NCBI GenBank assembly: GCA_041737595.1
Contig: JBGSRK010000010.1
Coordinates: 1-64,000, forward strand
Direction: 5' to 3'
From: Patescibacteria group bacterium
GTDB lineage: Bacteria; Patescibacteriota; CPR2; UBA1875
Length of the DNA: 64,000 bases
Both the position numbers and the translations under genes were made by a program. Below, piece after piece: positions 6,397-63,000 of this stretch (the first letter of the stretch is position 1; each line of letters starts with the position of its first letter). The notes below the pieces were generated by a model. It was not told where the DNA came from and did not search any database. It saw nothing but the letters and a program-made list of their open reading frames with translations.

Positions 6397-7206
6397 TTAA
6401 GTTGCAATATCTCTTTTTTGGAATCGCCAAATTGAAAGCGTCAAAAAAATAATTATTGTTGTTGAAAAAACCAAGATTGACCAGTCGGGAATTTGATTTT
6501 TCCCAAAAACTGTCGGTGCGTCAAAGTAATGAAAGAAAGAAAAATATTTAATATTTTCTAAACTTTCTTTAAGACCAGAAATAATCTTTAATGCATACAT
6601 GACTAACAGGACAGATGTAGTTAGCATTGTAGAACGACCTTTTTCAGAAAAAAGCACCGAAAAAAATGTCGCCATTGAAAAAATCGCAAGACCACAAAAG
6701 ATACCCACAAAACTAACTGTGGCATAATTTGCTACTTGATAATTAATCCCATGAATTAATGCTGCTCCCAATATTCCATAAGCCGATACAATAGTTAAAA
6801 TAGTTATAGCTAAAGAACCACCGAAAAATCTCGATAAAAGTATTTTTATTCTTGAAATGGGCTGAGCTAGAGTAAATTCAATTGTTCCACTTTCTATCTC
6901 GCCAACACAAATTGCATTTGCAAACGATATTGCCATAATCGTCACAAGTATTGGCCAAAAAAAACTAAAATATTCAGTAGACATATATGTTTCTAACTTA
7001 GAAAACATCGAATTTGCACTGTCCATTCCAAAAGCATCCATAAACCCTTTTGGGAAAGCCCCCATCATTTTATCTAGCTCTGCTGCCTGGGCTTGGATTG
7101 CAGGGAAAAGAGCAACGTACATTTCAATGAACCCAAGTGCGCCTACACAAAACCACAAAATCATATTTGACTTATCTTTAATAAATCTTATAAAAACGCC
7201 CCACAT
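6397..7206 (-). CDS. ABC-2 type transporter permease
   Basis: About 6 TM helices, GEIESGTIEFTLAQPISR motif, C-terminal FQKRDI. Confidence 0.9.
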   Translation of the reverse strand: MWGVFIRFIKDKSNMILWFCVGALGFIEMYVALFPAIQAQAAELDKMMGAFPKGFMDAFGMDSANSMFSKLETYMSTEYFSFFWPILVTIMAISFANAICVGEIESGTIEFTLAQPISRIKILLSRFFGGSLAITILTIVSAYGILGAALIHGINYQVANYATVSFVGIFCGLAIFSMATFFSVLFSEKGRSTMLTTSVLLVMYALKIISGLKESLENIKYFSFFHYFDAPTVFGKNQIPDWSILVFSTTIIIFLTLSIWRFQKRDIAT

Positions 7207-8135
7207 TATTTTACCTCTCCTCGATCATTTTTTTGTTTAACGTTGACATAATATTTTAAGAATATTTCTTCTAGGCTCGCGTGAGTTATTTCAATATCAT
7301 TAAATTTGTAAGTAGATATCTTTTTTACAATTGAATTTAAATCACCTCCAACGGTTAAAATTAAGCCCCTGGGTATTTCTTCAACTTTTTCTACCCCATT
7401 TATTTTAAAATCAGAAGGTTTAAATTCACCCGTGAATTGAACTACTACTTTATGAAGTCTTTTGCCTCCAAGCTTTGAAACAGGTTCAACTGCTACCATT
7501 TTACCCTGCTTTATTATCCCAACTCTATCACAAAGTCTTTCTACTTCATTAAGATTATGGGATGAAATAATAATAGTTGTTCCAAGTTTTTTCAAATCTT
7601 CTAAGACTTCATAAATAAGTGTTTGGAGCAAGGGATCAAGCCCTACTGTTGGCTCATCCATTATAAGTATTTCGGGTTTAGACATTAGAGACAAGACTAG
7701 ACCGAGTTTTTGTTTATTCCCAGATGAAAGATTTTTAAACTTTTTATTAATATCAAGTTCGAACTTATTAGAAAGTTCTCGTGCATTTTCTGATTTACCT
7801 CTTATAGATTCAATATATTCAATATGTTCTTTACCGGTCCATTTATTATTTAATCTTACATTTCCAGAAAGATACCCAATTTTTGATTTTAAAAATACAC
7901 TATCTTTAATTGAATCTTTCCCAAAAACTTTTATTTCCCCTTTTGTTGGATGGATAAAATTCATAATACAACGAATAGTAGTTGTTTTACCTGCACCATT
8001 TGGACCTAAAAATCCAAATGTTTCACCTTTTTTTACAGAAAAAGTTATTCCATCAACTGCTTTTACGGGTGGATTTTTTATTGTTGCTAGAAAATATTTT
8101 TTAAGATCTTTTATTTCTAATGCATTCATAATCAC
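7206..8135 (-). CDS. ABC transporter ATP-binding protein
   Basis: Walker A GPNGAGKTT, signature LSSGN, Walker B IMDEPT, SSH loop. Confidence 0.95.
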   Translation of the reverse strand: MIMNALEIKDLKKYFLATIKNPPVKAVDGITFSVKKGETFGFLGPNGAGKTTTIRCIMNFIHPTKGEIKVFGKDSIKDSVFLKSKIGYLSGNVRLNNKWTGKEHIEYIESIRGKSENARELSNKFELDINKKFKNLSSGNKQKLGLVLSLMSKPEILIMDEPTVGLDPLLQTLIYEVLEDLKKLGTTIIISSHNLNEVERLCDRVGIIKQGKMVAVEPVSKLGGKRLHKVVVQFTGEFKPSDFKINGVEKVEEIPRGLILTVGGDLNSIVKKISTYKFNDIEITHASLEEIFLKYYVNVKQKNDRGEVK

Positions 8136-8800
8136 TTAATTTTATTATTTTTTGCTGATAGTGTCAAAAATTCTTCAGGATATTCTTGATATTCAATATT
8201 TTTTTCAGAAGCTCGCTTAAGGACACTAATATAGTTTTCATGTTCTATTAGTAAAAGTCTTTTTGCTAAACTTTCATAATTATCAGACTTTAATACCTTA
8301 CATTTTTTTATACCAACAACTGGGCCTTCATCATATTTTGAAGTCGCAATATGGACACTTGAAAACGTATAAGGATATTTATATTTTGTCTTTTGTGCCC
8401 ATTTTAAGACTGATTCATGCACAAAATGACCCCACATTCCTTCTCCACCAAAATATGGGACTGCACCTGGATGAGAATTAAATACTAAAAATGAATCATT
8501 TCTGGTTATTGGGAATAATCTTAAATATCCTGCAAGAACCACAAAATCAACATTCTCCCGTGTAAGTTGGGTTACGATTCTTTTATGAAAATCATCTGTA
8601 TTTTCTTGTGCTCTTTTTTGGACAAATTTAATCCCCATTTTTTGAGCTTTTTCTAGTGCGCCACAATCTCTGTCAGCAAAAATAAAACACATATCTAAAT
8701 TAATCTTTTTAGATTTTATTGCTTTTGCAATAGCCTCAAATGTAGTCCCACCCCCAGAAACTCCAACGGCAAGATTAAATTTTTTTTCTTTATTTATCAT
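8132..8800 (-). CDS. purN: phosphoribosylglycinamide formyltransferase-like formyltransferase
   Basis: SGGGTTFEAI, VVLAGYL, NSHP, and YDEGP motifs. Confidence 0.8.
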   Translation of the reverse strand: MINKEKKFNLAVGVSGGGTTFEAIAKAIKSKKINLDMCFIFADRDCGALEKAQKMGIKFVQKRAQENTDDFHKRIVTQLTRENVDFVVLAGYLRLFPITRNDSFLVFNSHPGAVPYFGGEGMWGHFVHESVLKWAQKTKYKYPYTFSSVHIATSKYDEGPVVGIKKCKVLKSDNYESLAKRLLLIEHENYISVLKRASEKNIEYQEYPEEFLTLSAKNNKIK

Positions 8801-13384: not shown

Positions 13385-14146
13385 ATGATCGAAAAATTAA
13401 AAAAACTCCGAATCTACAACATTGTAGTCGGACTTGTATTGCTTGTTCAGGGAATTGTAATGTGGGCAATCTCGAATGAAACGGCGGCTAAAATTACAAC
13501 TAACTACCTAGGCAAAACGAGTAGCATACCGGGTATGCCCACAACCTCTATCGAGCAATTTGCAGAGTGGCAACTGGGGCCAATTGTGGCTTCATTTTTG
13601 CTACTTTCTGGGCTTTTCCTTTTGGGATCTGCCTTTGTGTGGAGAACTAAATATGAAGAACAGATTCAAAAAGGGATGAACTTATTCCGCTGGGCGGAGT
13701 ACTCTATTACCTCATCCTTAATGGTAGTAGTAATCGCCATTCTCTGCGGAATTTATGACCTCTCTACGCTAATATTAATCTTTGGCTTAAACGCTTGTAT
13801 GATTCTTTTTGGCTGGATGATGGAATTGCATAATCAAACCACTAAAAAGGTTGATTGGACTGCATACTTATTCGGTTGTTTTGCTGGCATCGTGCCTTGG
13901 GTAGTAATGGGGCTATACTTCTTTGCCGCACTTAAAGCCGGTGGTGATGCTGTGCCAAGTTTTGTATATGCAATCTTCTGGAGTCTTTTCGTGACCTTCA
14001 ACGTATTCTCTGTTGCAATGATTTTGCAGTACAAAAAAGTTGGTAAATGGAAAGATTATATGTATGGCGAATATGCATATATTACTCTTTCTCTAGTAGC
14101 AAAAGCCCTTCTTGCTTGGCAAGTTTGGGGAGGAACTCTTCGCTAA
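13385..14146 (+). CDS. heR: heliorhodopsin
   Basis: 7 TM helices; NLFRWAEYSITSS counterion motif, MILFGWMME, and YGEYAYITLSLVAK carrying the retinal Lys240; GGAGG SD. Confidence 0.95.
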   Translation: MIEKLKKLRIYNIVVGLVLLVQGIVMWAISNETAAKITTNYLGKTSSIPGMPTTSIEQFAEWQLGPIVASFLLLSGLFLLGSAFVWRTKYEEQIQKGMNLFRWAEYSITSSLMVVVIAILCGIYDLSTLILIFGLNACMILFGWMMELHNQTTKKVDWTAYLFGCFAGIVPWVVMGLYFFAALKAGGDAVPSFVYAIFWSLFVTFNVFSVAMILQYKKVGKWKDYMYGEYAYITLSLVAKALLAWQVWGGTLR

Positions 14147-14172: not shown

Positions 14173-14200
14173 TAAAATCGCCCAAGACTGGGCGATTTTA
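14173..14200. terminator. bidirectional terminator between heR and alaS
   Basis: TAAAATCGCCCA-agac-TGGGCGATTTTA perfect 12-bp stem. Confidence 0.85.
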
Positions 14201-17214: not shown

Positions 17215-18270
17215 TTAGTTTATTATTATACCACCACCTAAAACCAAATCTTTATTATAAAATACTATTGATTGGCCCTTTGTCACTGCTCTTTGTGGTT
17301 TATCAAAAATAACTAAATATCTATTATTTACATTTTTAACTAAACATTCCGCATCATCCATTCTATATCTTATTTTCGCACTACATTTAAATGGGAATTC
17401 AACAGAAGTAAGCCAGTTTGTATTTTCGATATCTATTTCATTTTTATATAATTCACTTTCCTCACCTATAACTATTTGATTTTTATTAGAATTTATTCCG
17501 ACAACATACATTGGTTTTTTTGAGCCCCCACCAAGCCCTTTTCTCTGCCCAATTGTATATGTAAATATCCCATCATGTTTTGTAATTTCTTCTCCGTCGA
17601 TATTTATTATTTTGCCTATATTCTTTTTTATCTTTTCTTTTAAATAATCTTCCGTCTTGCCATTAATAAAACATATTTCTTGAGATTCTTTTTTCTTTGC
17701 CGTCTTTAATTTTAGTTTATCGGCTATCTTTCTTGTTTCACTTTTTGAAATTTCGCCAAGTGGAAATATAATATTTTTTAAATTATCTTTATTAATCCCA
17801 TATAAAAAATAACTTTGATCTTTATTATTATCAAGACCCCGAAAAAGAAATAAATCATTTTTAACTTTCTTGATACGAGCATAATGGCCAGTAGCCAGTT
17901 TATCGGCACCTAAATCCTTAATTTTTGTTAGTAAATAATTAAATTTTATTAATTGGTTACATTTGATACAGGGGTTTGGTGTGTGCCCTTTTTTATAATC
18001 TTCTATAAAATCATTTACAATATATTTATTAAATTCTTTTTCAAAATTTATAACATAATGGGGTATACCGAGTTGAGCGCAGATGTTTTTTGCATCAGAA
18101 ACAGCATCCGAGGAACAACAATTTTTATCATCATTATTTGATTCTTTATAACAAAATAACTTCATAGTTACCCCAAAAACATTGTCTTTACCATATTTTT
18201 CTACACAAAGTGCTGCAGCAACAGATGAATCAACCCCTCCAGACATTGCGACAGCAACTTTATTTAACAT
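17215..18270 (-). CDS. mnmA: tRNA 2-thiouridylase MnmA
   Basis: SGGVDS, PNPCIKCN, ATGHY, KDQSYFL, ESQEIC and TIGQRKG motifs. Confidence 0.97.
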   Translation of the reverse strand: MLNKVAVAMSGGVDSSVAAALCVEKYGKDNVFGVTMKLFCYKESNNDDKNCCSSDAVSDAKNICAQLGIPHYVINFEKEFNKYIVNDFIEDYKKGHTPNPCIKCNQLIKFNYLLTKIKDLGADKLATGHYARIKKVKNDLFLFRGLDNNKDQSYFLYGINKDNLKNIIFPLGEISKSETRKIADKLKLKTAKKKESQEICFINGKTEDYLKEKIKKNIGKIINIDGEEITKHDGIFTYTIGQRKGLGGGSKKPMYVVGINSNKNQIVIGEESELYKNEIDIENTNWLTSVEFPFKCSAKIRYRMDDAECLVKNVNNRYLVIFDKPQRAVTKGQSIVFYNKDLVLGGGIIIN

Positions 18271-18271
18271 A

Positions 18272-18856
18272 TTATTTTAATTCCTCCGTATAATTAATAA
18301 AAATTTTACCAAGTTCCCCTAAAGTCAGAAATCTACCAACATTACTTTCCCACCAACCTTTTTTACGCCAATTCTCGTCAAGTGCAGACTGATTTATTAT
18401 TTCAACCTCTGGAAGTTCTTTTTTGAATAATTCATATGTTCTTCTTTGATGATAGGGGGATGTTACAAGTATTAATGATTTAATATTTTTTTCTTTAATG
18501 ATCTTGGCACTTAAGTCTGCATTTTCGAGGGTTGTTTTTGATTCTTCCTCAATTATAATATCTTCTTTAGGAACCCCCATTTTAACTGATATATTACGCA
18601 TTGCCTCGGCATTTGAAACATCCCCTTCTGCAGCAGCGCCAGAATACATCAACACTGGTGCCCATGCTTCTTTATAGAGTTGGACTCCTTTTTCAATTCT
18701 TGCAATATTATCACCCCCAGAAACAACAACAATTAAATCTGCTTTTTTTAATATATCTTGAGGTGAAAGATACCAACCAACAAAAAGTGGAAGTGCAATA
18801 ACTAAACAAATAATAATCGCGGCCCATAGGGATATTTTTTTTACTAATTTAAGCAT
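18272..18856 (-). CDS. YdcF/DUF218 family protein
   Basis: ADLIVVVSGG, EEESKTTLENA, LVTSPYHQRR motifs; N-terminal TM. Confidence 0.9.
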   Translation of the reverse strand: MLKLVKKISLWAAIIICLVIALPLFVGWYLSPQDILKKADLIVVVSGGDNIARIEKGVQLYKEAWAPVLMYSGAAAEGDVSNAEAMRNISVKMGVPKEDIIIEEESKTTLENADLSAKIIKEKNIKSLILVTSPYHQRRTYELFKKELPEVEIINQSALDENWRKKGWWESNVGRFLTLGELGKIFINYTEELK

Positions 18857-18859
18857 TTA

Positions 18860-19816
18860 TTAATCCGTAAATTCCTGAGAAAACATTTTGCCATATGGAC
18901 CACCATCAATTACCCCAATTCCTATTTTCCCAAATTCTGCAGTTAAAATATTTGCCCTATGCCCCGGGGAATTCATTAAACCCTCATGTGCTAAATCAAC
19001 ATTTGGAGCAAGTGCCAGGTTTTCTCCAGCCGCCATATATTTTATGCCAAAATCATCCATTCTATCAAATGGATCTTTACCATCAGGATTATTATGAGCA
19101 AAATAACCACGAGCAAACATATCACGCGAATGAACTCTTGCAAGATCTCTTAATTTTTCATCCATAACAAGTGGATCAAGCCCACGAGAAGTTCTTTCTT
19201 TATTTAACTTTATGAGCATTTCATTTTCTGAATCTTCATCTATGGTTACTTTATCTGTCTTAAAGCCAAGATCAACAGACTCTCCGGAATTTGGTTTTAC
19301 AGTTAAAAAAGTTAAAGTATCATTTATTGCCCCTCCAAAAACATTCGAGGCATAATTTTCAAGAAGTTGAGATTTAGAGAGTAGAAAACCACCTGTTTTT
19401 GAATTAACTATATCTTCTTTATATTTATTTTGTATAGGGAATACTGCAACCAATGTAAGAAATATAGCAACAAAAATTAATCCCCATAATACTCCTGGGA
19501 TAGCTCCAGCCCCTTTATTAAATATAGATTTTCTAATCTTTTCAGGAATTAGAGGATAAATAAAGTGAAACGCAATATTAAGAATAAATTGAATAATAAT
19601 CCAAATAATAAAAAATGAAAGCACTTTCCCAAAATTAGGAGAAAGAGAAAATTTACCCGCAAGATAAACAGAAAAAGATACATAAAATTTTACTGAAACC
19701 AAAAATGCTAAAATTAATGTTCCTAAATCATATAATTGTTTAATAAAACCTTTAAAATAACCAGAAATACCAAAAAGAGCTATTATTCCAATTATTGCTA
19801 AATCTGCCCAGTTCAT
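18860..19816 (-). CDS. CvpA-family membrane domain fused to CAP/SCP domain
   Basis: MNWADL...GYFKGFI (CvpA) followed by HSRDM..RGYFAH, GENLA, LMNSPGHRANIL (CAP). Confidence 0.88.
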   Translation of the reverse strand: MNWADLAIIGIIALFGISGYFKGFIKQLYDLGTLILAFLVSVKFYVSFSVYLAGKFSLSPNFGKVLSFFIIWIIIQFILNIAFHFIYPLIPEKIRKSIFNKGAGAIPGVLWGLIFVAIFLTLVAVFPIQNKYKEDIVNSKTGGFLLSKSQLLENYASNVFGGAINDTLTFLTVKPNSGESVDLGFKTDKVTIDEDSENEMLIKLNKERTSRGLDPLVMDEKLRDLARVHSRDMFARGYFAHNNPDGKDPFDRMDDFGIKYMAAGENLALAPNVDLAHEGLMNSPGHRANILTAEFGKIGIGVIDGGPYGKMFSQEFTD

Positions 19817-19858: not shown

Positions 19859-20113
19859 CTATTTTAGGCGACCCACCATGCATGAAGCATATGACTTTGC
19901 TTTTTTAAATAAACTTACAGCCTCTGAACTTCCAGCTTTTGGATAACCCATTTTTGATAAAGTTTTTTCAGCTACATCTATATCTCCATCAAATTCAACA
20001 GTTTGTGAATTTGGATCAACTTTAATATTCTTTAGCCCTTTTTTAATTAAAGAATCTTCAATGCTTTTTGCACAACCATGACATTTTATGTTAACAACTT
20101 CTATTTTTGACAT
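19859..20113 (-). CDS. heavy-metal-associated (HMA/CopZ-like) protein
   Basis: NIKCHGC motif, GYP, and a KAKSYASC..GR tail. Confidence 0.85.
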   Translation of the reverse strand: MSKIEVVNIKCHGCAKSIEDSLIKKGLKNIKVDPNSQTVEFDGDIDVAEKTLSKMGYPKAGSSEAVSLFKKAKSYASCMVGRLK

Positions 20114-20496
20114 TATTTCTCCTTATTTTTAGATTTATAATCTTTTATTGCTTCTCCTAATGCGCTAGCGGCTAAATTTGAACAATGCATCTTTATTGGT
20201 GGCAGACCACCAAGCTCTTTTGCCACTTGTTCATTCGTCAGTTTTTCTGCTTCTTTAATAGTTTTCCCAATCATCATTTCAGTTACAATTGAGGAAGTTG
20301 CAACAGCAGCACCACAACCAAAAGTTTGAAATTTAATATCAGTAATGATATCTTTTTCAACTTTTATGAACATTTTCATAATATCACCACAGGTTGGATT
20401 CCCAACTTGCCCAACTCCATCTGGATTTTCAATCGTCCCAACATTACGTGGATTTGAAAAATGATCCATTACTTTTTCATTATATAAATCAGCCAT
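20113..20496 (-). CDS. iscU: Fe-S scaffold IscU/NifU
   Basis: DHFSNPRNVG, NPTCGD, FGCG and LPPIKMHC motifs. Confidence 0.96.
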   Translation of the reverse strand: MADLYNEKVMDHFSNPRNVGTIENPDGVGQVGNPTCGDIMKMFIKVEKDIITDIKFQTFGCGAAVATSSIVTEMMIGKTIKEAEKLTNEQVAKELGGLPPIKMHCSNLAASALGEAIKDYKSKNKEK

Positions 20497-20849
20497 TAAC
20501 CTACCTCCTTTATTGTGTTTACCTTAACTAAAATTGCACCTTTAGCAAGAAATTCTTTATTCTCAGGCATTTTTTTAACAAAATCAACCCAATCCCCTTC
20601 AGTAAAATATTCTGCTTCTCCGATTATTTTATACCCGACAAAATCTTCATCCCAAACGATAATAGATACTTTTTTATTTTTTATGATGTTTTTAATCGTT
20701 TTCTCCATAAAATTATCAGTTATTAATAATTTATCATCATCAATAACCTTAACAAAAGCTGCAGTTGAAATATTTGGCTCATTATTTAAACAAGTTGAAA
20801 TTGCAATTGGGTTATTTTCTATTAGATTTTTTGCTTCTTTAGATATCAT
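20496..20849 (-). CDS. pyridoxamine 5'-phosphate oxidase-like FMN-binding protein
   Basis: ISTC..EPN, DNFMEKTIKNI, and GYKIIGEAEY motifs. Confidence 0.85.
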   Translation of the reverse strand: MISKEAKNLIENNPIAISTCLNNEPNISTAAFVKVIDDDKLLITDNFMEKTIKNIIKNKKVSIIVWDEDFVGYKIIGEAEYFTEGDWVDFVKKMPENKEFLAKGAILVKVNTIKEVG

Positions 20850-20874
20850 TTTTGATCTTCTCTATTATCTAGAA

Positions 20875-22077
20875 TTATTCTATTGGGCTCATTGCTCGGA
20901 GTTTTTCAACAATGCCGGGCAATATTTCCATTAGTTTATCTATATCTTCTTTTTTATTTAATTTTCCTAAACTAAATCTAATTGCGCCGTGTGCTTCCAT
21001 ATCACCATAGCCCATTGCTTTTGTAACATGAGATGGCTCTAGACTACCAGAAGTACAGGCGGAGCCACTTGAGGCAGCAATATCTTTCATATCAAGATTA
21101 ATAAGAATAGATTCTCCTTCAATTCGATGAAATATAAAAGTTGCAATATGGGGCAATCGATCCTTAGATTTCTTTGGACCAATAAGTTCTGTTTCTGGGA
21201 TTTCTTTTATAACCCGTTTAATTAAATAATCAGTCAAACTTGAAGTTTTTTTATAATAAGATTCACGGTTGTGGTTAGCATTTCCCATAGCTTTTGCCAA
21301 ACCAACAATATATGGGGTGTTTTCAGTCCCTGCTCTTTTACCCTGTTCTTGAGCCCCACCTTGTTGCTGAACTAGATATTTTGTACCTCTACGAATATAT
21401 AAAAGTCCAACACCTTTTGGCCCATAAAATTTATGTGCAGTAAGTGAAAGCATATCTACACCTAAATCATCTACTTTTACCGGCACAAAGGCAAAAGATT
21501 GAACTGCATCAGTATGAAATACTATTGGATTATTATTATTTATATTTTTTCTTTTAGTTTTTTCTTCATTTATTATTTTCCCAATACTTTTAATTGGTTC
21601 TAGGGCCCCCATTTCGTTATTACCCATGATTATAGAAACAATCACTGTATTTTCTCGAATAGCATCTCTAACATCTTCTGGGTTAATAAGTCCTTCTTTA
21701 TTAACTTTCAGATATGTGACCTCAAATCCAAAATATTTTTCTAAATATTTAGCAGTATCTAGAACACAATGATGTTCGATAGAAGAAATAATTATATGAG
21801 GTTTAATATTTAAAACTCTAGAGGCGTAAAAAGAAACTCCTTTGATTGCAAAATTATTGGATTCAGTTGCTCCACTTGTAAAAATTATCTCACCAGGTTT
21901 TTCGGCTCCAATAATTTCTGAAATTTTATGTCTAGAATCACATATGGCTTCTTTTGCTTCACGACCTATTTTATAAATACTAGAAGGATTCCCCCATTTT
22001 TCAGCAAAAAATGGAGACATTGATTTTAGGACTTCCTCACCCACTGGAGTAGTCGCTGCGTGATCAAAATATATCAT
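20875..22077 (-). CDS. iscS: cysteine desulfurase IscS/NifS
   Basis: YFDHAATT, HTDAVQ, AHKFYGPKG and SSGSAC motifs. Confidence 0.97.
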   Translation of the reverse strand: MIYFDHAATTPVGEEVLKSMSPFFAEKWGNPSSIYKIGREAKEAICDSRHKISEIIGAEKPGEIIFTSGATESNNFAIKGVSFYASRVLNIKPHIIISSIEHHCVLDTAKYLEKYFGFEVTYLKVNKEGLINPEDVRDAIRENTVIVSIIMGNNEMGALEPIKSIGKIINEEKTKRKNINNNNPIVFHTDAVQSFAFVPVKVDDLGVDMLSLTAHKFYGPKGVGLLYIRRGTKYLVQQQGGAQEQGKRAGTENTPYIVGLAKAMGNANHNRESYYKKTSSLTDYLIKRVIKEIPETELIGPKKSKDRLPHIATFIFHRIEGESILINLDMKDIAASSGSACTSGSLEPSHVTKAMGYGDMEAHGAIRFSLGKLNKKEDIDKLMEILPGIVEKLRAMSPIE

Positions 22078-22481
22078 TCTTTTATCTCTCTTTTTGTTGC
22101 TCTTTTAAGAAATATCCCCTTATCATATCCTCCTCTTTTTTTGAGTTTATCCTGCCTTATATCTTCAACCAAAGACATATCAATACTTTCTCTTTTTGCT
22201 ATAGCATAAATAATCTCTAACAAGTCTGCTAATTCGCCAGGTTTTTTTTCGGGTGAAGCATCTAGATATTCGTCTGATTCTTCATGAATTTTAGCTATAA
22301 GTGCCTTTACTATTTTTTCATTATCTTCTGACTTTTCAGATACTGAATCAACACCAATACTATCAAGGTATTCAACTATCCCGTCTCTGACTATTTTGTC
22401 ATAAAATACGTCATCACCATATTCTGAACTATCTGCTGGTATATATGATCCTTCTGAACTTTGTTTTAAAATTTCATTCAT
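22074..22481 (-). CDS. MazG-like NTP pyrophosphohydrolase
   Basis: YDKIVRD, EESDEY, ELADLLE and KRGGY motifs. ATG 22481 follows AAGGAG and overlaps the upstream stop. Confidence 0.8.
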   Translation of the reverse strand: MNEILKQSSEGSYIPADSSEYGDDVFYDKIVRDGIVEYLDSIGVDSVSEKSEDNEKIVKALIAKIHEESDEYLDASPEKKPGELADLLEIIYAIAKRESIDMSLVEDIRQDKLKKRGGYDKGIFLKRATKREIKE

Positions 22482-22696
22482 TATTTTCTCCTTTTTAAAG
22501 TACTTAAACAGGCTTTGCATTCACTAACTTGTTCTATTTTCATATTTTCAATTTTTTTATAGTCTTCCCATGTCAAAAGTACTCCAACTGGATCAGAATA
22601 TCTAAGAACAACAACACCTTCACCATTTTTAAGATTTTTTAAAATCTTTGAGGCATCGTTTGCAAGTTCATTTGTAGTTATAAATTTTTCTTTCAT
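22481..22696 (-). CDS. Phd/YefM antitoxin-fold protein with C-terminal CxxC
   Basis: ITTNEL...KIL...GEGVVVLRYSDPVGVL...EDY matches the Phd/YefM N-terminal pattern; tail ECKAC. Confidence 0.75.
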   Translation of the reverse strand: MKEKFITTNELANDASKILKNLKNGEGVVVLRYSDPVGVLLTWEDYKKIENMKIEQVSECKACLSTLKRRK

Positions 22697-22746
22697 AAAA
22701 ATGTTACCGTACATCTACGGTAACATTTTTAAGATCTGATTGTCAA
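22696..22746 (-). promoter_or_regulatory. promoter with perfect palindromic operator
   Basis: TAAAAATGTTACCGTA-catc-TACGGTAACATTTTTA (16-bp arms, 22696-22731); TTGACA at 22741-22746 and a TG-n-TACCGT -10-like box inside one arm. Confidence 0.75.
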
Positions 22747-35470: not shown

Positions 35471-36157
35471 CTAGTCTTCTTCTTCAATTTCTGAATCTTC
35501 AACAACTACAGAATAATGCTCGTCCGAAATTTTTTCTTGACTGTATTCATTTTTGCCTATTTTATAAGTTGCAAATATTGCACCAGCGTAAGCATACCAA
35601 AAAGCATAAATCATAATAAAACTAATAATTAAAATTATGCCAGTAGATGATTCCTTAATAGCATTATTTTCTATAAGATTAAGGATTATACTATCAGAAA
35701 TATTAAAACGAATTTTTTCTATTAAATCGGAGAATAAAGAAAAACCTGCAATAATGAGGGTGAAAGCACCACCAAAATATAAATAGTGAGTAAAATGTTT
35801 TTTAAAATCAATTGTTTGTTTTTTTAATAAGTTATTATAACTTTCATCTTGCTTATTAACAAAATCTTTCTTAATCTTTTGGTTATATATAAATATTTTG
35901 TATGACTGATAACCCCAAATCATAAAGAAAATAATAGAAGCTACGATTAACCAGATAATAACCATAAAACCACTTTTTATAAAGTAATTATCCCAACTTA
36001 CACCAGAAAGACCAACTTTAAAATAATCACCTATTAGATCTAAATAATAAAATCTAATTCCAAGATAACTATAAGAATATTGCCATGATAAAAAAATCAG
36101 AGAAAAGATTATTTTCCCTATAGTTGGTTTAAATATGTTTTTTATTTCTTCATTCAT
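35471..36157 (-). CDS. hypothetical 4-TM membrane protein
   Basis: Four hydrophobic segments; overlaps the upstream ferredoxin gene. Confidence 0.7.
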   Translation of the reverse strand: MNEEIKNIFKPTIGKIIFSLIFLSWQYSYSYLGIRFYYLDLIGDYFKVGLSGVSWDNYFIKSGFMVIIWLIVASIIFFMIWGYQSYKIFIYNQKIKKDFVNKQDESYNNLLKKQTIDFKKHFTHYLYFGGAFTLIIAGFSLFSDLIEKIRFNISDSIILNLIENNAIKESSTGIILIISFIMIYAFWYAYAGAIFATYKIGKNEYSQEKISDEHYSVVVEDSEIEEED

Positions 36158-36404
36158 TTTTTGTTTTAACTATAATAGCACAATCTGGACATATATTTTC
36201 ACATGTTTTACAACCAATACATTTTTCAATATCACACTTTACGGTAGCAGTCCCTAAATAGTTTTTGTTTTCATAATCAAATGAAAGACATTTTGCGGGA
36301 CACTTTTCTATACAAAAACCACAAGATTTACAAACTTCCGGGAAAGTTGACCAACTCTTATTATTTTTTTCATATTTTATTTCTTTAAAATTTTTTGACG
36401 CCAT
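36150..36404 (-). CDS. 2x[4Fe-4S] ferredoxin-like delta subunit
   Basis: CKSCGFCIEKCP and CIGCKTCENICP clusters. Confidence 0.93.
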   Translation of the reverse strand: MASKNFKEIKYEKNNKSWSTFPEVCKSCGFCIEKCPAKCLSFDYENKNYLGTATVKCDIEKCIGCKTCENICPDCAIIVKTKNE

Positions 36405-36976
36405 TTATCCTCTTTTTTTATTGATTTAATTATACCCATTCCCATTTCAAGAGCCTTGTGATTAAAATGCTTCAACTGAGGTTCTTTTAAATATTTATCT
36501 TTAAAAAATTCACTTAAAATTTTTATTGTTTCTTTTTCTTTAAGCCCACCAACCTCTCCCATGAGTGCCCCAAGGATAATAATATTAAAAACTTTTGGTA
36601 CTAGTTTTTCCTTAGCAAAAAATGTTGCAGGAATTGCTATTTTTGTATTTTTTAAACTCGAGATTTCTTCTTCTTTAATTAAACTATTATCAAAAAGAAG
36701 TATAGTTTTTTCATCAAAATATCTTTCAACCCTTTTTTTTGCACGAATAGCAAGTAAAACTACAATATCTGCTTTTTGAAATTTTGGAAAAGAAATTTTA
36801 TCATTAGAAATTTGAGTAAAAGCAAGAGAGACACCCCCCCTTTGTTCAACCCCAAAATTAGGCATATAAGTTACATCATAACCGGATTTATAGGCAACTT
36901 TTGCAAGTATTTTAGCAATTACTTGAATACCTTGCCCACCCTCACCAGCAATTAATATTTTATTTTTTTTCATCAT
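36377..36976 (-). CDS. 2-oxoacid:ferredoxin oxidoreductase gamma subunit
   Basis: AGEGGQG, FGVEQRGG and NIIILGA motifs. Confidence 0.93.
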   Translation of the reverse strand: MMKKNKILIAGEGGQGIQVIAKILAKVAYKSGYDVTYMPNFGVEQRGGVSLAFTQISNDKISFPKFQKADIVVLLAIRAKKRVERYFDEKTILLFDNSLIKEEEISSLKNTKIAIPATFFAKEKLVPKVFNIIILGALMGEVGGLKEKETIKILSEFFKDKYLKEPQLKHFNHKALEMGMGIIKSIKKEDKWRQKILKK

Positions 36977-37685
36977 CTACAATTCCTGTTTCATAAATTC
37001 TTTTAAGCGTATCTAAAAAATCAAAAGTTTTTTGAGTATTAGTTTTCCAGTTTGTGGGGCAATAAGATAATATCTCTAAAAAAGAAAAAGCATTATTATT
37101 TATTTGATTTTCAATTGCTAATTTTAAATATTTTTTTAATTGTGGGATATTATCAACACTTCCTCGTGCGATAAAAGCTTTTTTGTCTGCTACTTGTTTA
37201 ATTAAATTTGGTCCAAAAATTGGTCCTTCTACAAATTGACCTTCCGGGGTACTCTCTGTGTCTTCTCCAATTATAGTTGTAGGAGCTGCTTGTCCACCAG
37301 TCATTGCGAATACTGTATTATTAACCAAAATTACAGTTAATGGTTCATTTCTTTTGGCTGCATGTAAAAGATGATGTAACCCGATTGCATATCCCCCTCC
37401 GTCACCCATATAACTTATAACTACCTTTTTTGGCTGAGCTAACTTTATACCAGTTGAGACAGAAACACCTCTACCATGATGAGATTGTACTGAATTAATA
37501 TTATAATAATCCCAAGCAAGAAGAGAACAACCAATATCTGTAACAAAAACTGATTTATCAGAAATTCCAAGTTCATCTATTACAAAACCTAAATTTTTAA
37601 GAACAATACTATGGCCACAACCAGGACAAAAATCAGATGGTTTACTCTCTATTTTTACACATTTAGGGTATTTTGGTTCACTCAT
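36960..37685 (-). CDS. 2-oxoacid:ferredoxin oxidoreductase beta subunit (TPP-binding)
   Basis: FCPGCGH, IGC, HGR, GDGG, NN..FAMTGGQ and CPTNW motifs. Confidence 0.95.
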   Translation of the reverse strand: MSEPKYPKCVKIESKPSDFCPGCGHSIVLKNLGFVIDELGISDKSVFVTDIGCSLLAWDYYNINSVQSHHGRGVSVSTGIKLAQPKKVVISYMGDGGGYAIGLHHLLHAAKRNEPLTVILVNNTVFAMTGGQAAPTTIIGEDTESTPEGQFVEGPIFGPNLIKQVADKKAFIARGSVDNIPQLKKYLKLAIENQINNNAFSFLEILSYCPTNWKTNTQKTFDFLDTLKRIYETGIVDDEKK

Positions 37686-38713
37686 TTTATCATCTCTCTT
37701 AATTTTTCTTCTATTTCTTCTGAAATAATACCTTGGGCAGGTTTATATAATCTTTCTACTGACAAATCCTTAACTCCAAAAAGTGACTCTAAAACTAACC
37801 TACCAAACTGGCCAAATGATGATTCTGCAATTAATATTTTTTTAGCATTTTTTACCGCAATCTTTGCTTTTTGTGCTCCAAATGGTTTTAAAGTAATCGG
37901 TCTAAATAAACCAACTTTTAAACCCTCTTTTCTCAATTTTTCAACTGCTTCTCGTGCTGCGCTCCCTACTGTCCCCCAAGCAAAAACTACTACTTCTGCA
38001 TCGTCACACTTTATGACCTCTGATTTTTCAACTTTTGAGCCTATTGCGGCAAAATCCTTTAATTCTCTTAATATTATTTGAGATAGCTCTTCTTCTTGAG
38101 AATAAGTATTTCTAATGTTCACAGGATGATCAAAGTCTAATATTGATTTTGCTGCCTTAACCTTACCAGCTTTTTTTAAAATTACTGATCCCATTGTTTT
38201 TGAAAGATATCCATCACCTAGAACTATAACGGGCAAGCGATATCTGAAGGCCCAATCAAAAGCAAGTATCATAAAATCATATAATTCTTGTAAATTTGAA
38301 GGCCCAAGAACTAACCTCATTGCTTCTCCATTTCCACCCCTTGTAGCAAGATTCAATTCTTGTTGAGAATAAATTACAGTACCGGTTGAGGGACCTCCTC
38401 TTTGACCAATATATGCAACAAATGGAATTCTTTCTGCCTCAGCCATTACAATAGGATCTTGCATAAGAATATGCCCCGCTGCAGCTGTTGCTGTCCAGGC
38501 TTTTTTACCACCAAGCGATGCCCCAAGTAAAGTAAATCCTGCTGATGGTTCATCTTCTGTTTGAAGAAATAATAGTTTTTTGTCTTTTGCAGCCTCCTTA
38601 GCCCAACCAGTTAATATTTCTGTGGTTGGAGTAATAGGGTAACCGAAAAAAGCATTAGCTCCCGCTGCTAAAGCTGCTTTAATAATTATTTCATTCCCAG
38701 TTAATAGCTCGAT
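37682..38713 (-). CDS. 2-oxoacid:ferredoxin oxidoreductase alpha subunit
   Basis: Frame extends past the track start: LTGNE, GYPITPTTE, QTEDE, QRGGPSTG. The only plausible start is ATC 38713 after AAGGAGG. Confidence 0.92.
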   Translation of the reverse strand: MELLTGNEIIIKAALAAGANAFFGYPITPTTEILTGWAKEAAKDKKLLFLQTEDEPSAGFTLLGASLGGKKAWTATAAAGHILMQDPIVMAEAERIPFVAYIGQRGGPSTGTVIYSQQELNLATRGGNGEAMRLVLGPSNLQELYDFMILAFDWAFRYRLPVIVLGDGYLSKTMGSVILKKAGKVKAAKSILDFDHPVNIRNTYSQEEELSQIILRELKDFAAIGSKVEKSEVIKCDDAEVVVFAWGTVGSAAREAVEKLRKEGLKVGLFRPITLKPFGAQKAKIAVKNAKKILIAESSFGQFGRLVLESLFGVKDLSVERLYKPAQGIISEEIEEKLREMIK

Positions 38714-57032: not shown

Positions 57033-60000
57033 TTATCTTAATAGGGCTTTCGTACCTTCATTTATGTAATGGCTATAATTAGGGTTTAGTGTAGATATCC
57101 CATTAATTTTATTTGCTAAATTAGTCAAGCCACCGTTATTATCTATTAATATCTGTTCAACGCCTCTCGCCTGAGCGTAAGTAAGATTACTATAAACTTC
57201 CTGCACGATACGACCATCAGAAGACCACTCTTTTGCCCTTCGTACTATATCAACCGTTCTCCCTACGTAGTTTATAACCCCAGCAGATTTCTCCACATAT
57301 ACCGAATAGGTCCTGTCTGCTAACCCATTAGCGGCGGTAATGGTTGTACTAGATGCCACCAAGGCTTTGGCCAATATCGTTACGGAAGCTGCTGTAATGC
57401 CAGCGCTAATAGCGCCACTAATTGCCCCGCCAATTGCACCCGCAGTACTGCCCTTACTAAAACCATTATTAAATGAGTTACCGATGCTTGACTTTTTACC
57501 ACTCGCCCTGTCGATAGCCACCTGGGTAAGACCTCCAGCAACCCCACCAGCCACATAACCGGCAAGTGCACCCGTTATTGCACCTGCAACGAATGCACCA
57601 GCAACATAACCAGCACCTGTGCCAAGCCCTCCCGTAGCTAAGCCGACCACCGCACCCACCGCAACACCAACTACCGTCCCAACAACCCCACCAACAATGG
57701 CTGCAGCATTGTTTTTCACCCAGCTAAAAAAACCTTTACCACTAGGGTCAATCCTAGTAATTGGGTTATTGGCCGTGTAAAGATATGGATTTTGATCTAG
57801 CGCAAATTCACTGGCCACCACAGGATCTTTTGAAAAGAACCGGCCCGTTTCGGGATCATACATACGAACCTTCATGAAGTACTGTGCAAGGTCAGAGTCG
57901 TACCAATAAGAAGCATATAATCTAGGGTTAAGTTCATTGAGATTTGCAGGTACGGTGTCTGATATAGTTTCCGACTTAAGAACGTTACCCCAAGAATCAT
58001 ATTCATAATTAACCACCTTAGCACCGGTGGTGTCCGTAAGCCCCAGTACATCGCCCTTAGCATTTTTTACATATTGATACGTTTTAAATGTCCCATCTGA
58101 ATTGTATATAGAGATACTGATAAGGTTTTCATTTTCATCCCAAGTATATGCCCTAATCAAATTGCCATTTAAATCAGACTCAGAAATCAGCATATCTCCG
58201 TCATAAGAGAAATTTATATAAGATTTAGTACCCGCTGTGTCGGTTTTAATACGTTGGATTCTCCGTCCAGAATTTGAATCATAAATGTACTCAATAACAA
58301 CACCAGAAGGCAAAATTGCTTTCTTGAGCTTATTTGAACTATCATATTCATAGTTGGTAATACCTGATTTACTGTTGTTGCGACTTGTAACATTCCCTGA
58401 TTTATCATAAGAAAAAGTAGCCGAATAACTATTATTTTCGTCGTTGGCCGTGTAATTATACTGAGTAAGCTTATTACCATCACCGTTCTCATCATAAGTA
58501 TAATTTATAACGCCATCAGAACCATTTCGTGTGAGTCGGTTACCGGCAATATCATAACTATAACTATATTTTTCATCTTCAGTTAATTGGTTCCTTACAT
58601 CATAGGAATAATTAAATCTTTCTTGCCTTACTTTATCAATTATCGAGGTAACGTTTGAATTGGCATCATATTCATAACCAAACGACGCCAGAACCATAGC
58701 ATTGCGATTAGTAGTTACCGTTGATATAGTACGTCCACCATTGTCATAACCAAATCTAGTTATATCACCATTTGCTTTTGTAATTTGAGTAATTTTACCT
58801 TCCGCATCTCGCAATATTTGACCACTTGCCAGTACAGCGCCATTACTATTTTGTATATTAGTCACACCAGTCACCTGGTTATTCACATCGTAAGTCAGAC
58901 TCACTGTATTTGTTGCGGAAACAGATTGAGTGATATTACCGGCTGCATCTACAGCATCTCTTGCAATACCATTAGTATTTGTTGCAATTTGAGTAGGTCT
59001 ATTAACTGGGTCATAACTTACTGAAACGGTTTCGGAACCAGATGAAACCTGGAGATCATCAAAGGAAGCATTAGTTTGATAAGTCGCAAGTTCTATTTGA
59101 CCTTCTTTAAGTCCACGCGTAAAGGTGTAATCAATAACTTTTACATTATTTACATATAGTTTTACATTTTCACCCAAAGACACAATTTTTATGTTGTACC
59201 ATGTATTTACAGCCAAAGTCCCAGTACCATTTGCGTATTGTTCTGTCTGACCAGTTATTACTGCCCCGGCACGCCATAATGAACCGATGTAGCCAATATA
59301 ATAGTTATTGGCTCCACTAGAGCGATAAAGTAATCTAAAATACGGAGCAGTGGTTGAAGAACGGCGTACTCTAAATTCAACTGTACCATTAGAAAAGTTT
59401 AGATTTCGAATAGTGCTTTTACGATAAGTAGTTATAGCAGTTGAACTATCGGTTTGATTATATGTACCGCCAGTTAGATTCCAGCTACCAGATATAGGCG
59501 CAAGTGAATCTTGGCGTGTAATATTAAAATCGTTTTTATATAACAATTTATTCACACTTGTAGTACCAGTAACTGCTGTTACATTATGATTTTTGTCATA
59601 AATATTATTTGAGCCACCCTCAGGAGTTACTGAATTTACAACAGCGCCCATCTTGTCATAAGTAGAAGTAGAGGTATTCCCCTTTTCGTCAGTAGTAGAA
59701 ACAATATTCCCATTTCTATCATAAGTTACATTTATCGTATTACCTTCTGGGTCGGTCTGTGAAATAATTTGATTTAATACATCAAAGTTATAAGTAAAAA
59801 TCTTTCCTTTTGCGTTTATCATTTTTACTTTATTCCCCACCTTGTCATATTCAAATTGAGTAGTAGCACCAGCTTCATCTGTCGCTTTTATCATACGACC
59901 CAGTAAATCATAATCCATTAATCTTGCATTGCTTTTAGGGTCAGTTGTCTTGATTACATTACCACCTACACTATATTCAGTAATAATTGTTGTTCCTAAA

Positions 60001-63000
60001 GGATCAGTAACTTTTACTGGCCGATTAAGTCCGTCATATTCAATAGTAGAAATCTTACCAAGCGTAGATATATTCTTTATAATTAGCCCAATACTGTTAT
60101 ATTCGTTAGTCATAATTTCTCCTTTAGGAGTAACAGCCGTAAGAATATCTCCCTCCGAATTATAGGTATAACGGCTTACTTGTAATTTAGGGTCAGTAAC
60201 CGAAACTATTCTGCCCATCGCATCATACCCATAAGTAGTAACCTTGGCGTTACTGTCGGTAACACTTAAAAGAAGTCTTTTACCATCTGTAGAATAAGTA
60301 TATCTTGTAATTTGACCCTTCATATCTGTAGAAGAAGTCATATCATTCCCTACATATACATAAGTAGTTTTATTACCATCAGGATAAGTTGTCTCTAATA
60401 GATTACGATTAACATCATATTTATAATTTATGGAGTAGTAATAAATATCGTTTGTAGCAAGATCAGGGAATGTTTTTGTAAGATTAAAATTTATATCATA
60501 AACATATTTTTCACGATAATTTTTAGCATTTGTCATCGTAGACAACATATTTGCACTATCAAACCCCAATTTAGTCACTCGACCAAGAGGGTCAGTAATA
60601 GTTGTTAATCTATCGACATATGTAATATTTGTTGCATTTCCGAGAGCATCCGTAATTGCATTAACTTTGTCCCCAGTATATGTTATCGAAGTAACAGCAC
60701 CAGCTTTATCCCTAAATCTTTCTAATTTACTTGTTTCAATATATGAATATTCATAATAATTATCTTGACCATCAAACACTTTAGATAACACTCCATTTGC
60801 ATCATATTCGTAACGAACCGCTTGATTTGCATTATTATTAACCTTTATTAGGCGACTGGCGGCATTATACTCAAACGCAAGTGACCGATTCTGATTAATT
60901 ATACGTGAACAAAGACCATTAACATATTCATAACTTAAAGTATTACCTAATAAATTCGTTTTACGACTTATTTTCCCATCGGTACCAAAATAGCTTTTGT
61001 TACCAGATTTATCTAAAAGATAATATGTTCCATCCAAATTTTTAGTTAGAGATACAGTTATTCCTGCTGGTTTCTTATAGGTACCATCAGTATTTTTTGT
61101 ATATACATTAATATTTCCTGATCCATTTTTGTAATAGATATTTTCAGGATCAGATATATACAACCTCTCCTCAAAACTAGCACTCCAACCACTCCCTAAT
61201 ACACCTTGATCTTTCCAAATTTCAGGGTTATAAGTACTATATATAAGCCCACTTAATGGTTGAGCAGATGTATTTGTAAATCTCGCCGACATCTGCCAGC
61301 TGGCGGAGCCTTGAGAAACCTTTAAGGTAAGTGAGTTCCAGCCCTGTCGCAAATTTGCAGATACTATGTCACTATCAAGAGTTAGTGTTCTAGTAATTTC
61401 TCGAGAAATAAGAACTGTTCCATTTAACCAAGCCTTAATCCCATCATCAGAACCTAATCTTAATTGTACTGTCTGATCTGACGGTGAATAGACATAAACA
61501 TGAGCGTAGGCAGAAACATTAGTGGCCGTATCTACTTGGAAATTTGATAAACGGTGAAAAACCTGATTAAGTCTAACTTGAGTAGTCTCTGTTTCTGTTT
61601 CGGGGGCCCATAGATTATTACTTCCAGTCATACCTGGGCTTGGTTTCATAGTAGCTTCACCAGGTATAAATGCTTTAGTCAGCCTACTAGCAACCACTGC
61701 TTCTTTATATGGACCATTAAAAAGCCATGTCTTTATATACCCATTTGCATCTTGATTAAAAGTCTTATTAGAAAGCTGATTTGAATCATAGCTTCTGCTA
61801 AATGAAACACCACCAATACTTGAAGGTACTGACATATCAGTAGAACTATAAGAAATTCCACCCGTTACAGCATCAACTGGCCCTACTTTAGAATAAATCG
61901 AGTCAGACCCAATATGAGTTATAGAAGAAAATGATGGAGCACTTACCGTAACGGTTTTGAGACCCTTAACTACACCTTGATCAGAAAACCAAGTAATACC
62001 TGGCTGTATCATATCCCATTGAAGAGTATATGACCCAGCAATAGTTGGCACCTTCACTTTTGCTAAAACCGTTGTTATCCCACCCTTAGCAGCCACATTT
62101 GCTGGTATATCTGTCTGTAGCCCTGATTTTAAGACGGCACCGGTAGTATTATTAACCCAGTGATAACTAACCTTAGTTTGGCTAGATAACCAAACATTTC
62201 TACCCGTGTTTACAACTGTAATTGGAACTTCCGTCGTTGTACCTGCAAACATGGACGGTACATCAGTAGGATAATAAGTAGCATTATAATCATTATAACT
62301 AACGGTTAATTTAGGATAACTATTACTGTAGTCAGGGTTATTCTTGGAAACCCAGGTGCGATAGCCCCAAGTACCTTCTGCGGTAGAGGCAAAACCAATA
62401 GAACCAATCCAAGATCCCGTGCTATTTCCACCTTCATACCAATGTCTCACTAGACTCGATACATCTTGATGGTACCAACCATATGGGTTTGCTTGTGAAG
62501 CAGACCCCCAACTATTAAGAAAAGCTGGTTTATTATTCCAATAAACATTAGTGGGGTTATAAGAAGCAGTTGTATAAGCAGTTACACTACTTGTAGGACA
62601 AACTCCATTACAGTTACCATATTGGTAAACATCAAAAGCAGCACTTAAAATTCGAGCACCAGAAAGGTCAGGTAAAGTAAACTTTGTTTCGGTTCTCATA
62701 ATCCCTTTTGTTGAACCAGTCCCTACATATAATGCACGTTGATCCCACGATGTTGTTGTAGGATAACCACTTTGGACATAAGAATCCTCGGTTACATATT
62801 GAGTAATTGTAGGATCAATATAAATTGGGAATACACGCTCAGGTGCACTAAGCCACCTTAAGTCAGGTTTTACTGTTAAACGATAACCACCAGTAATAGT
62901 GCTTAAAACAGTGGGTACATTATAATTATATGAATTCTGTTCATTATCTTTACCACCTTTCGAATCCCACATTAAAAAACGTGGGATACGAAATATTTCA

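Follow-up and report, generated by a model that had tools for sequence, protein, structure and literature searches.

The window analysed here is a stretch of 64,000 nucleotides (nt) from a Patescibacteria group bacterium (assembly GCA_041737595.1, contig JBGSRK010000010.1, positions 1 to 64,000 of the forward strand). It is AT-rich, with a G+C content of 32.7%. Its minus strand carries an operon for the assembly of iron-sulfur (Fe-S) clusters. The first gene of the operon encodes a Phd/YefM-like protein of 71 amino acids (aa), called the small protein below, and a perfect palindrome covers the putative -10 element of this gene and ends on its ATG. Genes for a MazG-like enzyme, a NifS/IscS-type cysteine desulfurase, an FMN-binding protein, a NifU/IscU-type scaffold and an HMA-domain protein follow (Table 1). 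They are joined by overlaps of 1–4 nt, with a single 25-nt gap as the exception. A first-pass annotation, made from the DNA letters, had described this layout and suggested that the small protein replaces the regulator IscR; the layout was recovered in full. Its statement that no Rrf2/IscR gene is present held for the part examined, none being found among 60 scanned open reading frames (ORFs) of the window (8 in or flanking the operon and 52 others). We propose that the small protein represses its own operon and may sense Fe-S clusters through cysteines contributed by both subunits of a dimer.

Table 1. Features of the Fe-S assembly operon and its surroundings, in window coordinates
Feature	Position	Strand	Basis or remark
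SH3-domain gene, stop codon	22752..22750	-	upstream neighbour of the small gene
-35 box TTGACA	22746..22741	-	read from the sequence
Putative -10 hexamer TACCGT, within the left arm	22722..22717	-	conserved -35 spacing; assignment putative
Operator candidate, perfect palindrome	22696..22731		16-nt arms 22716-22731 and 22696-22711; centre GATG
Conserved core GTTACC-N10-GGTAAC, 22 bp	22703-22724		kept in 26 loci
Phd/YefM-fold protein, 71 aa, RYSDP motif and C60-x-x-C63	22696..22481	-	Pfam, AF2, homologues
MazG-like / PRA-PH-like NTP pyrophosphohydrolase candidate, all-alpha, 135 aa	22481..22074	-	weak but consistent support
NifS/IscS-type cysteine desulfurase, 400 aa	22077..20875	-	Aminotran_5 2e-75
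PNPOx-like FMN-binding protein, 117 aa, variable cassette	20849..20496	-	PNPOx_N 4e-12
NifU/IscU-type scaffold, 127 aa	20496..20113	-	NifU_N 5e-51; TIGR03419 NifU_clost
HMA-domain protein, 84 aa, CHGC motif, variable cassette	20113..19859	-	HMA 1.4e-10
CvpA-CAP fusion	19816..18860	-	Pfam; syntenic, same strand
DUF218 protein	18856..18272	-	Pfam; syntenic, same strand
MnmA tRNA 2-thiouridylase	18270..17215	-	Pfam; syntenic, same strand

The comparative survey showed how closely the small gene is linked to the desulfurase gene. A single scan across the species genomes of GTDB yielded 26 loci, 25 of which could be assessed for NifS, the remaining one (L017) lying at a contig edge. A nifS/iscS gene followed the small gene in all 25 assessable loci, and iscU was found downstream wherever the contig was long enough. 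NifS was directly next in 20 of the 25, with a gap of 0–118 nt, and the gap was 0–24 nt in 16 of the 25. The slot before NifS was filled in the other five by MazG-like (L003, L004, L013), Nudix (L004, L008) or 23S-rRNA-IVP (L012) genes. The interval between NifS and NifU held varying cassettes: PNPOx-like, a ferredoxin-thioredoxin fusion, MazG, GNAT, M29 peptidase and IVP. The PNPOx-like gene occupied this interval in 4 other loci (L004, L016, L018, L023), and the HMA gene occurred in 2 other loci only (L014, L018). The constant core is the small protein, NifS and NifU. The wider neighbourhood, TatD-SH3-Phd-NifS-NifU-CvpA/CAP-DUF218-MnmA, was syntenic across the loci. Identity to the window proteins across the 26 loci was 63–80% for the small protein, 47–70% for NifS and 34–53% for TatD.

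The desulfurase of the window had TIGR03402 NifS as its best NCBIfam match (469.9 bits, below the cutoff of 530.75), and the scaffold scored 208.7 bits against TIGR03419, above the cutoff of 187.9. The operon thus pairs a class-V desulfurase with a single-domain NifU/IscU and contains no HscAB, Fdx or IscA, which is the composition of a MIS-like system; MIS is the name used for the minimal NifS-NifU system in an excerpt of PMC13066941. Relatives of the operon genes were titled Patescibacteria group bacterium, candidate division WS5 bacterium or uncultured Candidatus Saccharibacteria.

The databases label the small protein family as "type II toxin-antitoxin system Phd/YefM family antitoxin". 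If the label were taken literally, the small protein would be an ordinary antitoxin paired with the MazG-like neighbour as its toxin, or with a toxin whose gene has been lost, and the overlap of its stop codon with the next start codon in the window (TAATG) would suit such a pair. However, a MazG-like gene is present in 3 of the 25 other loci and absent from 22, NifS is the direct neighbour in most of them, and the small protein is better conserved than NifS and has a fixed chromosomal position, which is atypical of mobile toxin-antitoxin modules. The MazG-like gene itself was considered separately as a toxin. Its open ORF is 22520..22074, with the ATG at 22481 as the likelier start. The MazG-like label is weakly supported (PRA-PH E 0.012, MazG E 0.12), and the relatives in L003 and L013 score better. 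The acidic motifs EExxE and ExxD, of the nucleoside triphosphate (NTP) pyrophosphatase type, are conserved. A low-confidence model had a predicted local distance difference test (pLDDT) value of 58.5, and its weak Foldseek matches had E-values of at least 0.3, many of them to all-alpha NTP pyrophosphatases. The MazG-like protein matched nothing in PADLOC and no toxin or defence model. The MazG-like protein was rejected as a toxin because of its absence from most loci, its pyrophosphatase-type motifs and the lack of a PADLOC match. The first-pass annotation had likewise seen no cognate toxin, and we consider the chance that the small protein is an ordinary antitoxin to be vanishingly small.

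No other perfect inverted repeat in the window is as long as the palindrome, the runner-up having arms of 12 nt. In 40 first-order Markov simulations, arms never grew beyond 13 nt and so never reached 16. The right arm of the palindrome ends with the first base of the start codon of the small gene, and the spacer from TTGACA to TACCGT is 18 nt. The 10-mer TGTTACCGTA matched exactly only at the two palindrome arms in the window. Allowing up to one mismatch, 5 matches were found against 1.98 expected, a number reached in 2 of 100 shuffles. The three one-mismatch sites were rejected as further operators, being at chance level.

The core of the palindrome was conserved in every locus. Exact GTTACC-N10-GGTAAC occurred once each in 24 of the 26 loci, 27–246 nt upstream of the small gene. 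L003 and L015 had the same core with G instead of C as the last base, and all 26 cores lay 27–269 nt upstream. Apart from this base the outer hexamers did not vary, and the inner arms hardly did, whereas the flanking intergenic DNA was mostly not conserved. The spacing from TTGAC to TACCNT was 17 nt in 20 and 18 nt in 7 of the 27 sequences (the window plus 26 loci), and the putative -10 read TACCCT in most loci. Thus the operator proposed by the first-pass annotation kept both its sequence and its -35 register in 26 of 26 loci. Symmetric changes were seen in the arms: the window and L020 have G/C in place of C/G, and L009 has T/A. Such changes would fit a site for a dimeric protein and a hairpin alike. 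The fixed -35 register together with the sequence invariance favours a promoter-operator acting at the DNA level.

No other copy of the core was present in the 229,826 nt of the loci. A relaxed search for GTTACC-N6-12-GGTAAC found no further sites in the window or the 26 loci, so that no regulon can be defined from the surveyed DNA. GTTACC-N10-GGTAAC was also not found near the 2-oxoacid:ferredoxin oxidoreductase gene cluster of the window (35471-38464).

The palindrome might instead do no more than terminate the upstream SH3-domain gene, as an intrinsic terminator of bidirectional appearance on which the small protein has no action. As RNA it folds into a hairpin of -21.3 kcal/mol (z -5.95; 0 of 200 shuffles fold as well), it is flanked by an A-run and a T-run, and it begins 19 nt past the SH3 stop codon. 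A clear terminator elsewhere in the window, the GC-rich bidirectional palindrome at 14173-14200, has the same TAAAA-stem-TTTTA shape. However, terminators keep their structure and not their sequence, whereas here the outer hexamers vary only in the last base of L003 and L015, among loci whose TatD identity is just 34–53%. Each of the 27 sequences keeps the register of 17–18 nt between the -35 box and the left arm, a constancy to be expected of an operator and not of a terminator, and a consensus terminator scan did not list the palindrome. A terminator-only reading was largely rejected, as it leaves the sequence invariance and the -35 register unexplained, and we regard it as very improbable. 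If transcription starts a few bases past TACCGT, the mRNA of the operon would carry the right arm only, and read-through from the SH3 gene would carry the whole hairpin. A dual role of the palindrome as insulator and operator is possible.

Several variations were seen around the core. A third GTTACC, in direct orientation and 12 bp upstream of the left arm, was present in L007, L012, L013, L016, L018, L019 and L023. It falls between the -35 box and the palindrome, 50–116 nt upstream of the gene, and the window is without this third copy. Long leaders were found in L003, L015 and L024 (~240–270 nt) and in L004, L005 and L017 (~150–170 nt). They carry several short inverted repeats, which L003, L015 and L024 have in common; such extra DNA was seen where the core stood 100–270 nt ahead of the start codon. 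Rfam searched on the window and 8 long-leader loci gave one tRNA and no leader family. The long leader may stem from the insertion of a miniature element, or it may be structured. The start codon stood 0–2 nt past the palindrome, without a Shine-Dalgarno sequence, in the window, L011 and L022, and the gap was 4 nt in L009. A start codon abutting the palindrome implies that the leader is probably very short. Most other loci had GGAG between the operator and the ATG.

The reading frame of the small protein was fixed by its homologues. The longest reading is an ORF of 77 aa (22714..22481), which would start at an ATG in the centre of the palindrome. In 38 of 38 aligned homologues MKEKF, or a sequence close to it, stood at the position of the shorter reading, and in 36 it formed the first residues. 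The start at 22714 was rejected and the start at 22696, giving 71 aa, was adopted because the homologues begin at MKEKF.

The small protein matched PF02604 (PhdYeFM_antitox) with E 3.9e-6 and 27.0 bits against a cutoff of 29.8, and it scored 16.9 against a cutoff of 20.8 for TIGR01552. Distant relatives exceeded the PF02604 cutoff (P0128 41.9, P0137 40.3 and P0130 36.2 bits). A precomputed PF02604 match exists for about 108 of the 120 homologues listed, and the protein atlas returned only clusters annotated as Phd/YefM. An AlphaFold2 (AF2) model built from 39 homologues had a pLDDT of 70. Its topology was E2-7, H8-20, E26-32, E35-40 and H43-70, a beta-alpha-beta-beta fold ending in a long helix of 28 residues. 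Foldseek against the PDB ranked Phd, YefM or RelB-type antitoxins at the top, including operator-bound Phd, with template modelling (TM) scores of 0.5–0.77. The best match was 3k33_C (E 0.04, probability 1.00, TM 0.62). The assignment of the modelled structure to the Phd/YefM fold is sound, and strict membership of the profile is borderline.

The close family is small. A word-indexed search found 189 homologues, and the 120 listed share 70–100% identity. A profile search over 1.84 billion cluster representatives gave 37 matches with E of at most 1e-3, five of which had E of at most 1e-10. Such few matches indicate that the close family is narrow and tightly conserved. No family paralogues were found in the window or the 26 loci. 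Longer or fused forms were limited to one protein of 171 aa and the fusion protein P0123. P0123 (218 aa) keeps the RYSDP motif and the CxxC and has a fused NUDIX hydrolase domain. In the window and in L003, L004, L008 and L013, the slot behind the small gene is taken by separate Nudix or MazG-like genes. Together, the fusion and the slot genes are a recurrent tie of the small protein to nucleotide pyrophosphatases.

Two cysteines set the small protein apart. The first-pass annotation had placed them at the very end of the protein (ECKAC), which was incorrect; the motif C60-x-x-C63 lies eight residues ahead of the C-terminus. That annotation had proposed a survey of their conservation, and the outcome, like that of its other computational checks, was in its favour. 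C60 and C63 were unchanged in 39 of 39 aligned homologues, and CxxC was present in all 120 of the close homologues listed out of 189. In an alignment of 43 sequences down to ~30% identity, the sole invariant residues were L11, R32, Y33, P36, C60 and C63. The weaker matches with an RYSxP motif and a C-terminal CxxC form a wider family. With 18 of the distant members as seeds, a further search yielded 54 proteins. CxxC was present in 48 of 48 of these at E of at most 1e-15, and the 6 weakest (E at least 3.8e-6) were without it. The named members among the distant relatives are few, and all are Patescibacteria.

The dimer foreseen in the first-pass annotation was supported by modelling. Two copies of the small protein were modelled as a complex with their own alignment of 43 rows and a 4Fe-4S cluster riding along, the ligand itself being unscored. 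The homodimer score was 0.60, and the best of 3 controls scored 0.00. In the benchmark for the passing mark, 20 of 30 proteins solved as same-chain pairs and 1 of 23 single-chain proteins reached it; these counts hold only roughly here because our own alignment was used and the ligand was present. The homodimer runs agreed in at least 93% of contacts, and the partner pLDDT was at least 81. This pass may reflect likeness, since Phd/YefM dimers have already been solved. The contacts with the lowest error were between residues 36-43 of the two chains, which pair as strands, and along helix 8-22. Confident contacts of the C-terminal helix involved residues 46, 49-50, 52-53, 56, 64 and 67-68. From this rhythm of three to four residues we infer that C60 and C63 would lie on the inner face between the paired helices. 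The four thiols of the dimer would then face one another.

What the four cysteines do can be read in more than one way. The four-cysteine site of the dimer is probably the sensory element. That its ligand is an Fe-S cluster is a tentative assignment, which we hold at somewhat under even odds. The small protein could be an autorepressor in which the cysteines are structural or redox-active, either stapling the C-terminal helices together through Zn(Cys)4 between the subunits or serving as a thiol-disulfide switch for oxidants, so that the signal would be zinc, redox state or none. CxxC pairs from two chains are known to share one Zn, as in the Rad50 hook. The CxxC is invariant across distant subfamilies despite a varied spacing between the core and the motif, which is typical of a structural need, and the helices lie side by side in the dimer model. 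The thioredoxin fusion and the Nudix and MazG-like cassettes fit an oxidative-stress switch equally well. Against zinc or redox, carriers of the Nfu and ApbC/Nbp35 type, which belong to the Fe-S assembly pathway too, bridge a labile cluster with one CxxC from each chain. The head position before nifS-nifU in 25 of 25 loci also mirrors the Fe-S-using regulators IscR and SufR, as described in an excerpt of PMC13066941. The computed results do not discriminate Zn from Fe-S. We consider this alternative rather unlikely, although it is the most serious of those weighed here.

Alternatively, the small protein could be an accessory factor that binds NifS or NifU, or carries a cluster or persulfide, using its CxxC tail much as antitoxins hold their toxins with their C-termini, with the palindrome bound by something else or acting as a terminator. 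Its start/stop coupling or near coupling with NifS (0–24 nt in 16 of 25 loci) would suit stoichiometric co-production, and the C-terminal segment is the partner-binding part in solved Phd/YefM complexes, according to the PDB titles. On the other hand, DNA binding and dimerisation in this family reside in the N-terminal fold (4zlx, 4zm0, 4zm2, 7v6w), and the palindrome is locked to the promoter of the small gene itself in 27 of 27 sequences, for which autoregulation is the simplest explanation. An accessory role appears improbable.

The small protein was compared with known systems. It resembles the Phd/YefM antitoxins (Phd of phage P1, YefM and Axe; PF02604) in its predicted fold and topology, its modelled beta-3 dimer and its place as the first gene of an operon. 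The antitoxins have a cognate toxin (Doc, YoeB or RelE) downstream, and the small protein has none. It is chromosomal, syntenic and more conserved than the neighbouring enzymes, and it adds an invariant C-terminal CxxC and the RYSxP motif. For YefM and Axe, an excerpt of PMC7730913 describes binding to palindromes over the promoters of their own genes, the -10 included, and the palindrome here has a similar position. The same excerpt describes the YefM operators as paired short TGTACA palindromes 12 bp apart, whereas the locus here has a single palindrome of 22 bp.

IscR also heads a desulfurase-scaffold operon. It is an Rrf2 protein with a [2Fe-2S] cluster encoded in iscRSUA. IscR has about 160 aa with an Rrf2 winged helix, whereas the small protein has 71 aa and no Rrf2 match. 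The ligands of IscR are three cysteines and a histidine within one chain, whereas the small protein has two cysteines per chain. The Nfu and ApbC/Nbp35 carriers have one CxxC per subunit, with two subunits bridging a labile cluster. They have no DNA-binding domain and no sequence or fold kinship to the small protein, and the resemblance is no more than a lead. In an excerpt of PMC13066941, IscR in its holo form is described as a repressor of isc, and the expected logic, negative feedback on Fe-S supply, would be shared. The Fe-S-sensing regulators listed in that excerpt are IscR, SufR, NsrR, SoxR, RirA and FNR. SufR of cyanobacteria and actinobacteria is a cluster-sensing repressor that heads the suf operon it controls (excerpts of PMC6034842 and PMC13066941). 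SufR differs in its DNA-binding fold and its cysteine motif, and it serves SUF and not NifS-NifU. No similarity of the small protein to SufR or another known regulator domain was found in Pfam or NCBIfam. By analogy, the small protein would work like IscR or SufR while belonging to neither family. An autoregulatory antitoxin fold as the regulator heading an Fe-S operon would be a new combination. In the open-access full texts searched, no description of a Phd-like nifS/iscS regulator was found.

We favour the reading that the small protein is an antitoxin-fold autorepressor of the nifS-nifU operon with a four-cysteine dimer site as an Fe-S sensor, and give it a probability of roughly 0.55. An autoregulatory DNA-binding role as such is considerably firmer and looks highly probable. 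The small protein would be a Patescibacteria-specific housekeeping transcription factor built on the Phd/YefM fold, its toxin partner having been lost. It would form a homodimer through the beta-3 strands and the N-terminal helix, as the model supports. One dimer or a pair of dimers would bind GTTACC-N10-GGTAAC. Since the left arm contains the putative -10, a bound dimer would keep RNA polymerase out, and the small protein would thereby repress the entire operon, its own gene included. The long C-terminal helices would lie side by side and bring C60 and C63 of both chains into one four-cysteine site. Allosteric coupling is known in Phd-Doc. In the favoured mechanism, the four-cysteine site would substitute for the toxin as a "co-repressor", ordering the C-terminus and tuning DNA binding. 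The site would hold a labile, subunit-bridging Fe-S cluster supplied by NifS/NifU, and with this cluster in place both the C-terminal pairing and the DNA-binding form would be more stable. An ample supply of clusters would thus keep the operon shut, and scarcity or oxidation of clusters would derepress it, an IscR-like feedback on an unrelated fold.

Several points weigh against this reading. The linkage in 25 of 25 loci reflects one clade and not independent events, because the whole neighbourhood is syntenic. The 27.0 bits of the small protein lie under the Pfam gathering cutoff of 29.8, the Foldseek E-values are modest (0.04 or weaker), and a family-profile search of PDB sequences gave nothing significant, the best antitoxin-like match having E 0.24. 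A consensus promoter scan did not list the TACCGT promoter, which it omitted because only 3 of 6 positions match TATAAT; TACCNT in general is a poor match. The centres of GTTACC and GGTAAC are 16 bp apart, unlike the published YefM operators. The palindrome could also terminate the SH3 gene because of its A/T-tract flanks and stable RNA hairpin. The ligand is proposed from two invariant cysteines and the genomic context. The CxxC is invariant in distant subfamilies as well, whereas the locus survey covered the close family; the Zn(Cys)4 and disulfide alternatives gain weight from this invariance. If the distant subfamilies do not stand beside Fe-S genes, a structural Zn or dimerisation role would become likelier than Fe-S sensing.

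The genes around the core were also of interest. A fusion of ferredoxin (2x4Fe-4S) and thioredoxin lies between NifS and NifU in L003 (7285-7890, +) and L008 (7322-7930, +). The Nudix and MazG-like genes, the thioredoxin fusion, PNPOx and HMA, together with MnmA, would suit a unit for Fe-S or oxidative-damage response. The IscU of L020 (2938-4440, +) is interrupted, without loss of the reading frame, by an insertion of ~360 aa that bears hallmarks of an intein. These are a Cys directly after ...VGNPV, a LAGLIDADG-like IIGFYLSEGY, and an end ...VHN followed by CGD. The insertion point is the first cluster-ligand cysteine of the IscU scaffold. In L004, a 24-residue N-terminal fragment of IscU (7085-7156, +) is followed by an M29-peptidase-like ORF (7155-8147) and a full IscU (8157-8537).

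Downstream of the operon in the window, the terminator scan listed nothing terminator-like between the HMA gene and the CvpA-CAP, DUF218 and MnmA genes, and these three may be co-transcribed with the operon. The MnmA of the window carries NPCIKC and EICF, a pattern that we take to be that of the Fe-S-dependent MnmA type. The 2-oxoacid:ferredoxin oxidoreductase cluster mentioned above is encoded on the minus strand and comprises POR_N/PFOR_II, TPP_enzyme_C, POR gamma and Fer4 delta. It is likely a major Fe-S client of the genome. A heliorhodopsin gene was annotated at 13385-14146 (+; Pfam PF18761, E 6.6e-90), just before the terminator-like palindrome at 14173-14200. An RHS-repeat protein of 2222 aa (57033-63701, -) reaches near the window edge.

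The control of essential cofactor synthesis in the ultra-small Patescibacteria (candidate phyla radiation, CPR), which have few recognisable regulators, is essentially unknown, and no regulator of the minimal NifS-NifU systems is described in the literature searched. The 71-residue protein, its 22-bp site and its two cysteines are a directly testable candidate. The RYSxP...CxxC proteins may be an unrecognised structural class of cluster-sensing transcription factor that provides the IscR-equivalent loop of Patescibacteria, a suggestion that we advance with less confidence than the autorepressor role. In such proteins a CxxC helix would have taken the place of the tail with which antitoxins bind toxins, and two of these helices would hold the bridging cluster. 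The wider RYSxP...CxxC family could be general redox or Fe-S-responsive regulators of reduced genomes. The labels "Phd/YefM family antitoxin" in Patescibacteria genomes should not be counted as toxin-antitoxin systems. If the favoured reading is true, an antitoxin fold has been domesticated as a core housekeeping regulator in which a metal or cluster replaces the toxin as the allosteric partner. This would link the evolution of toxin-antitoxin systems to metabolic feedback and would add a new fold to the few Fe-S-sensing regulators.

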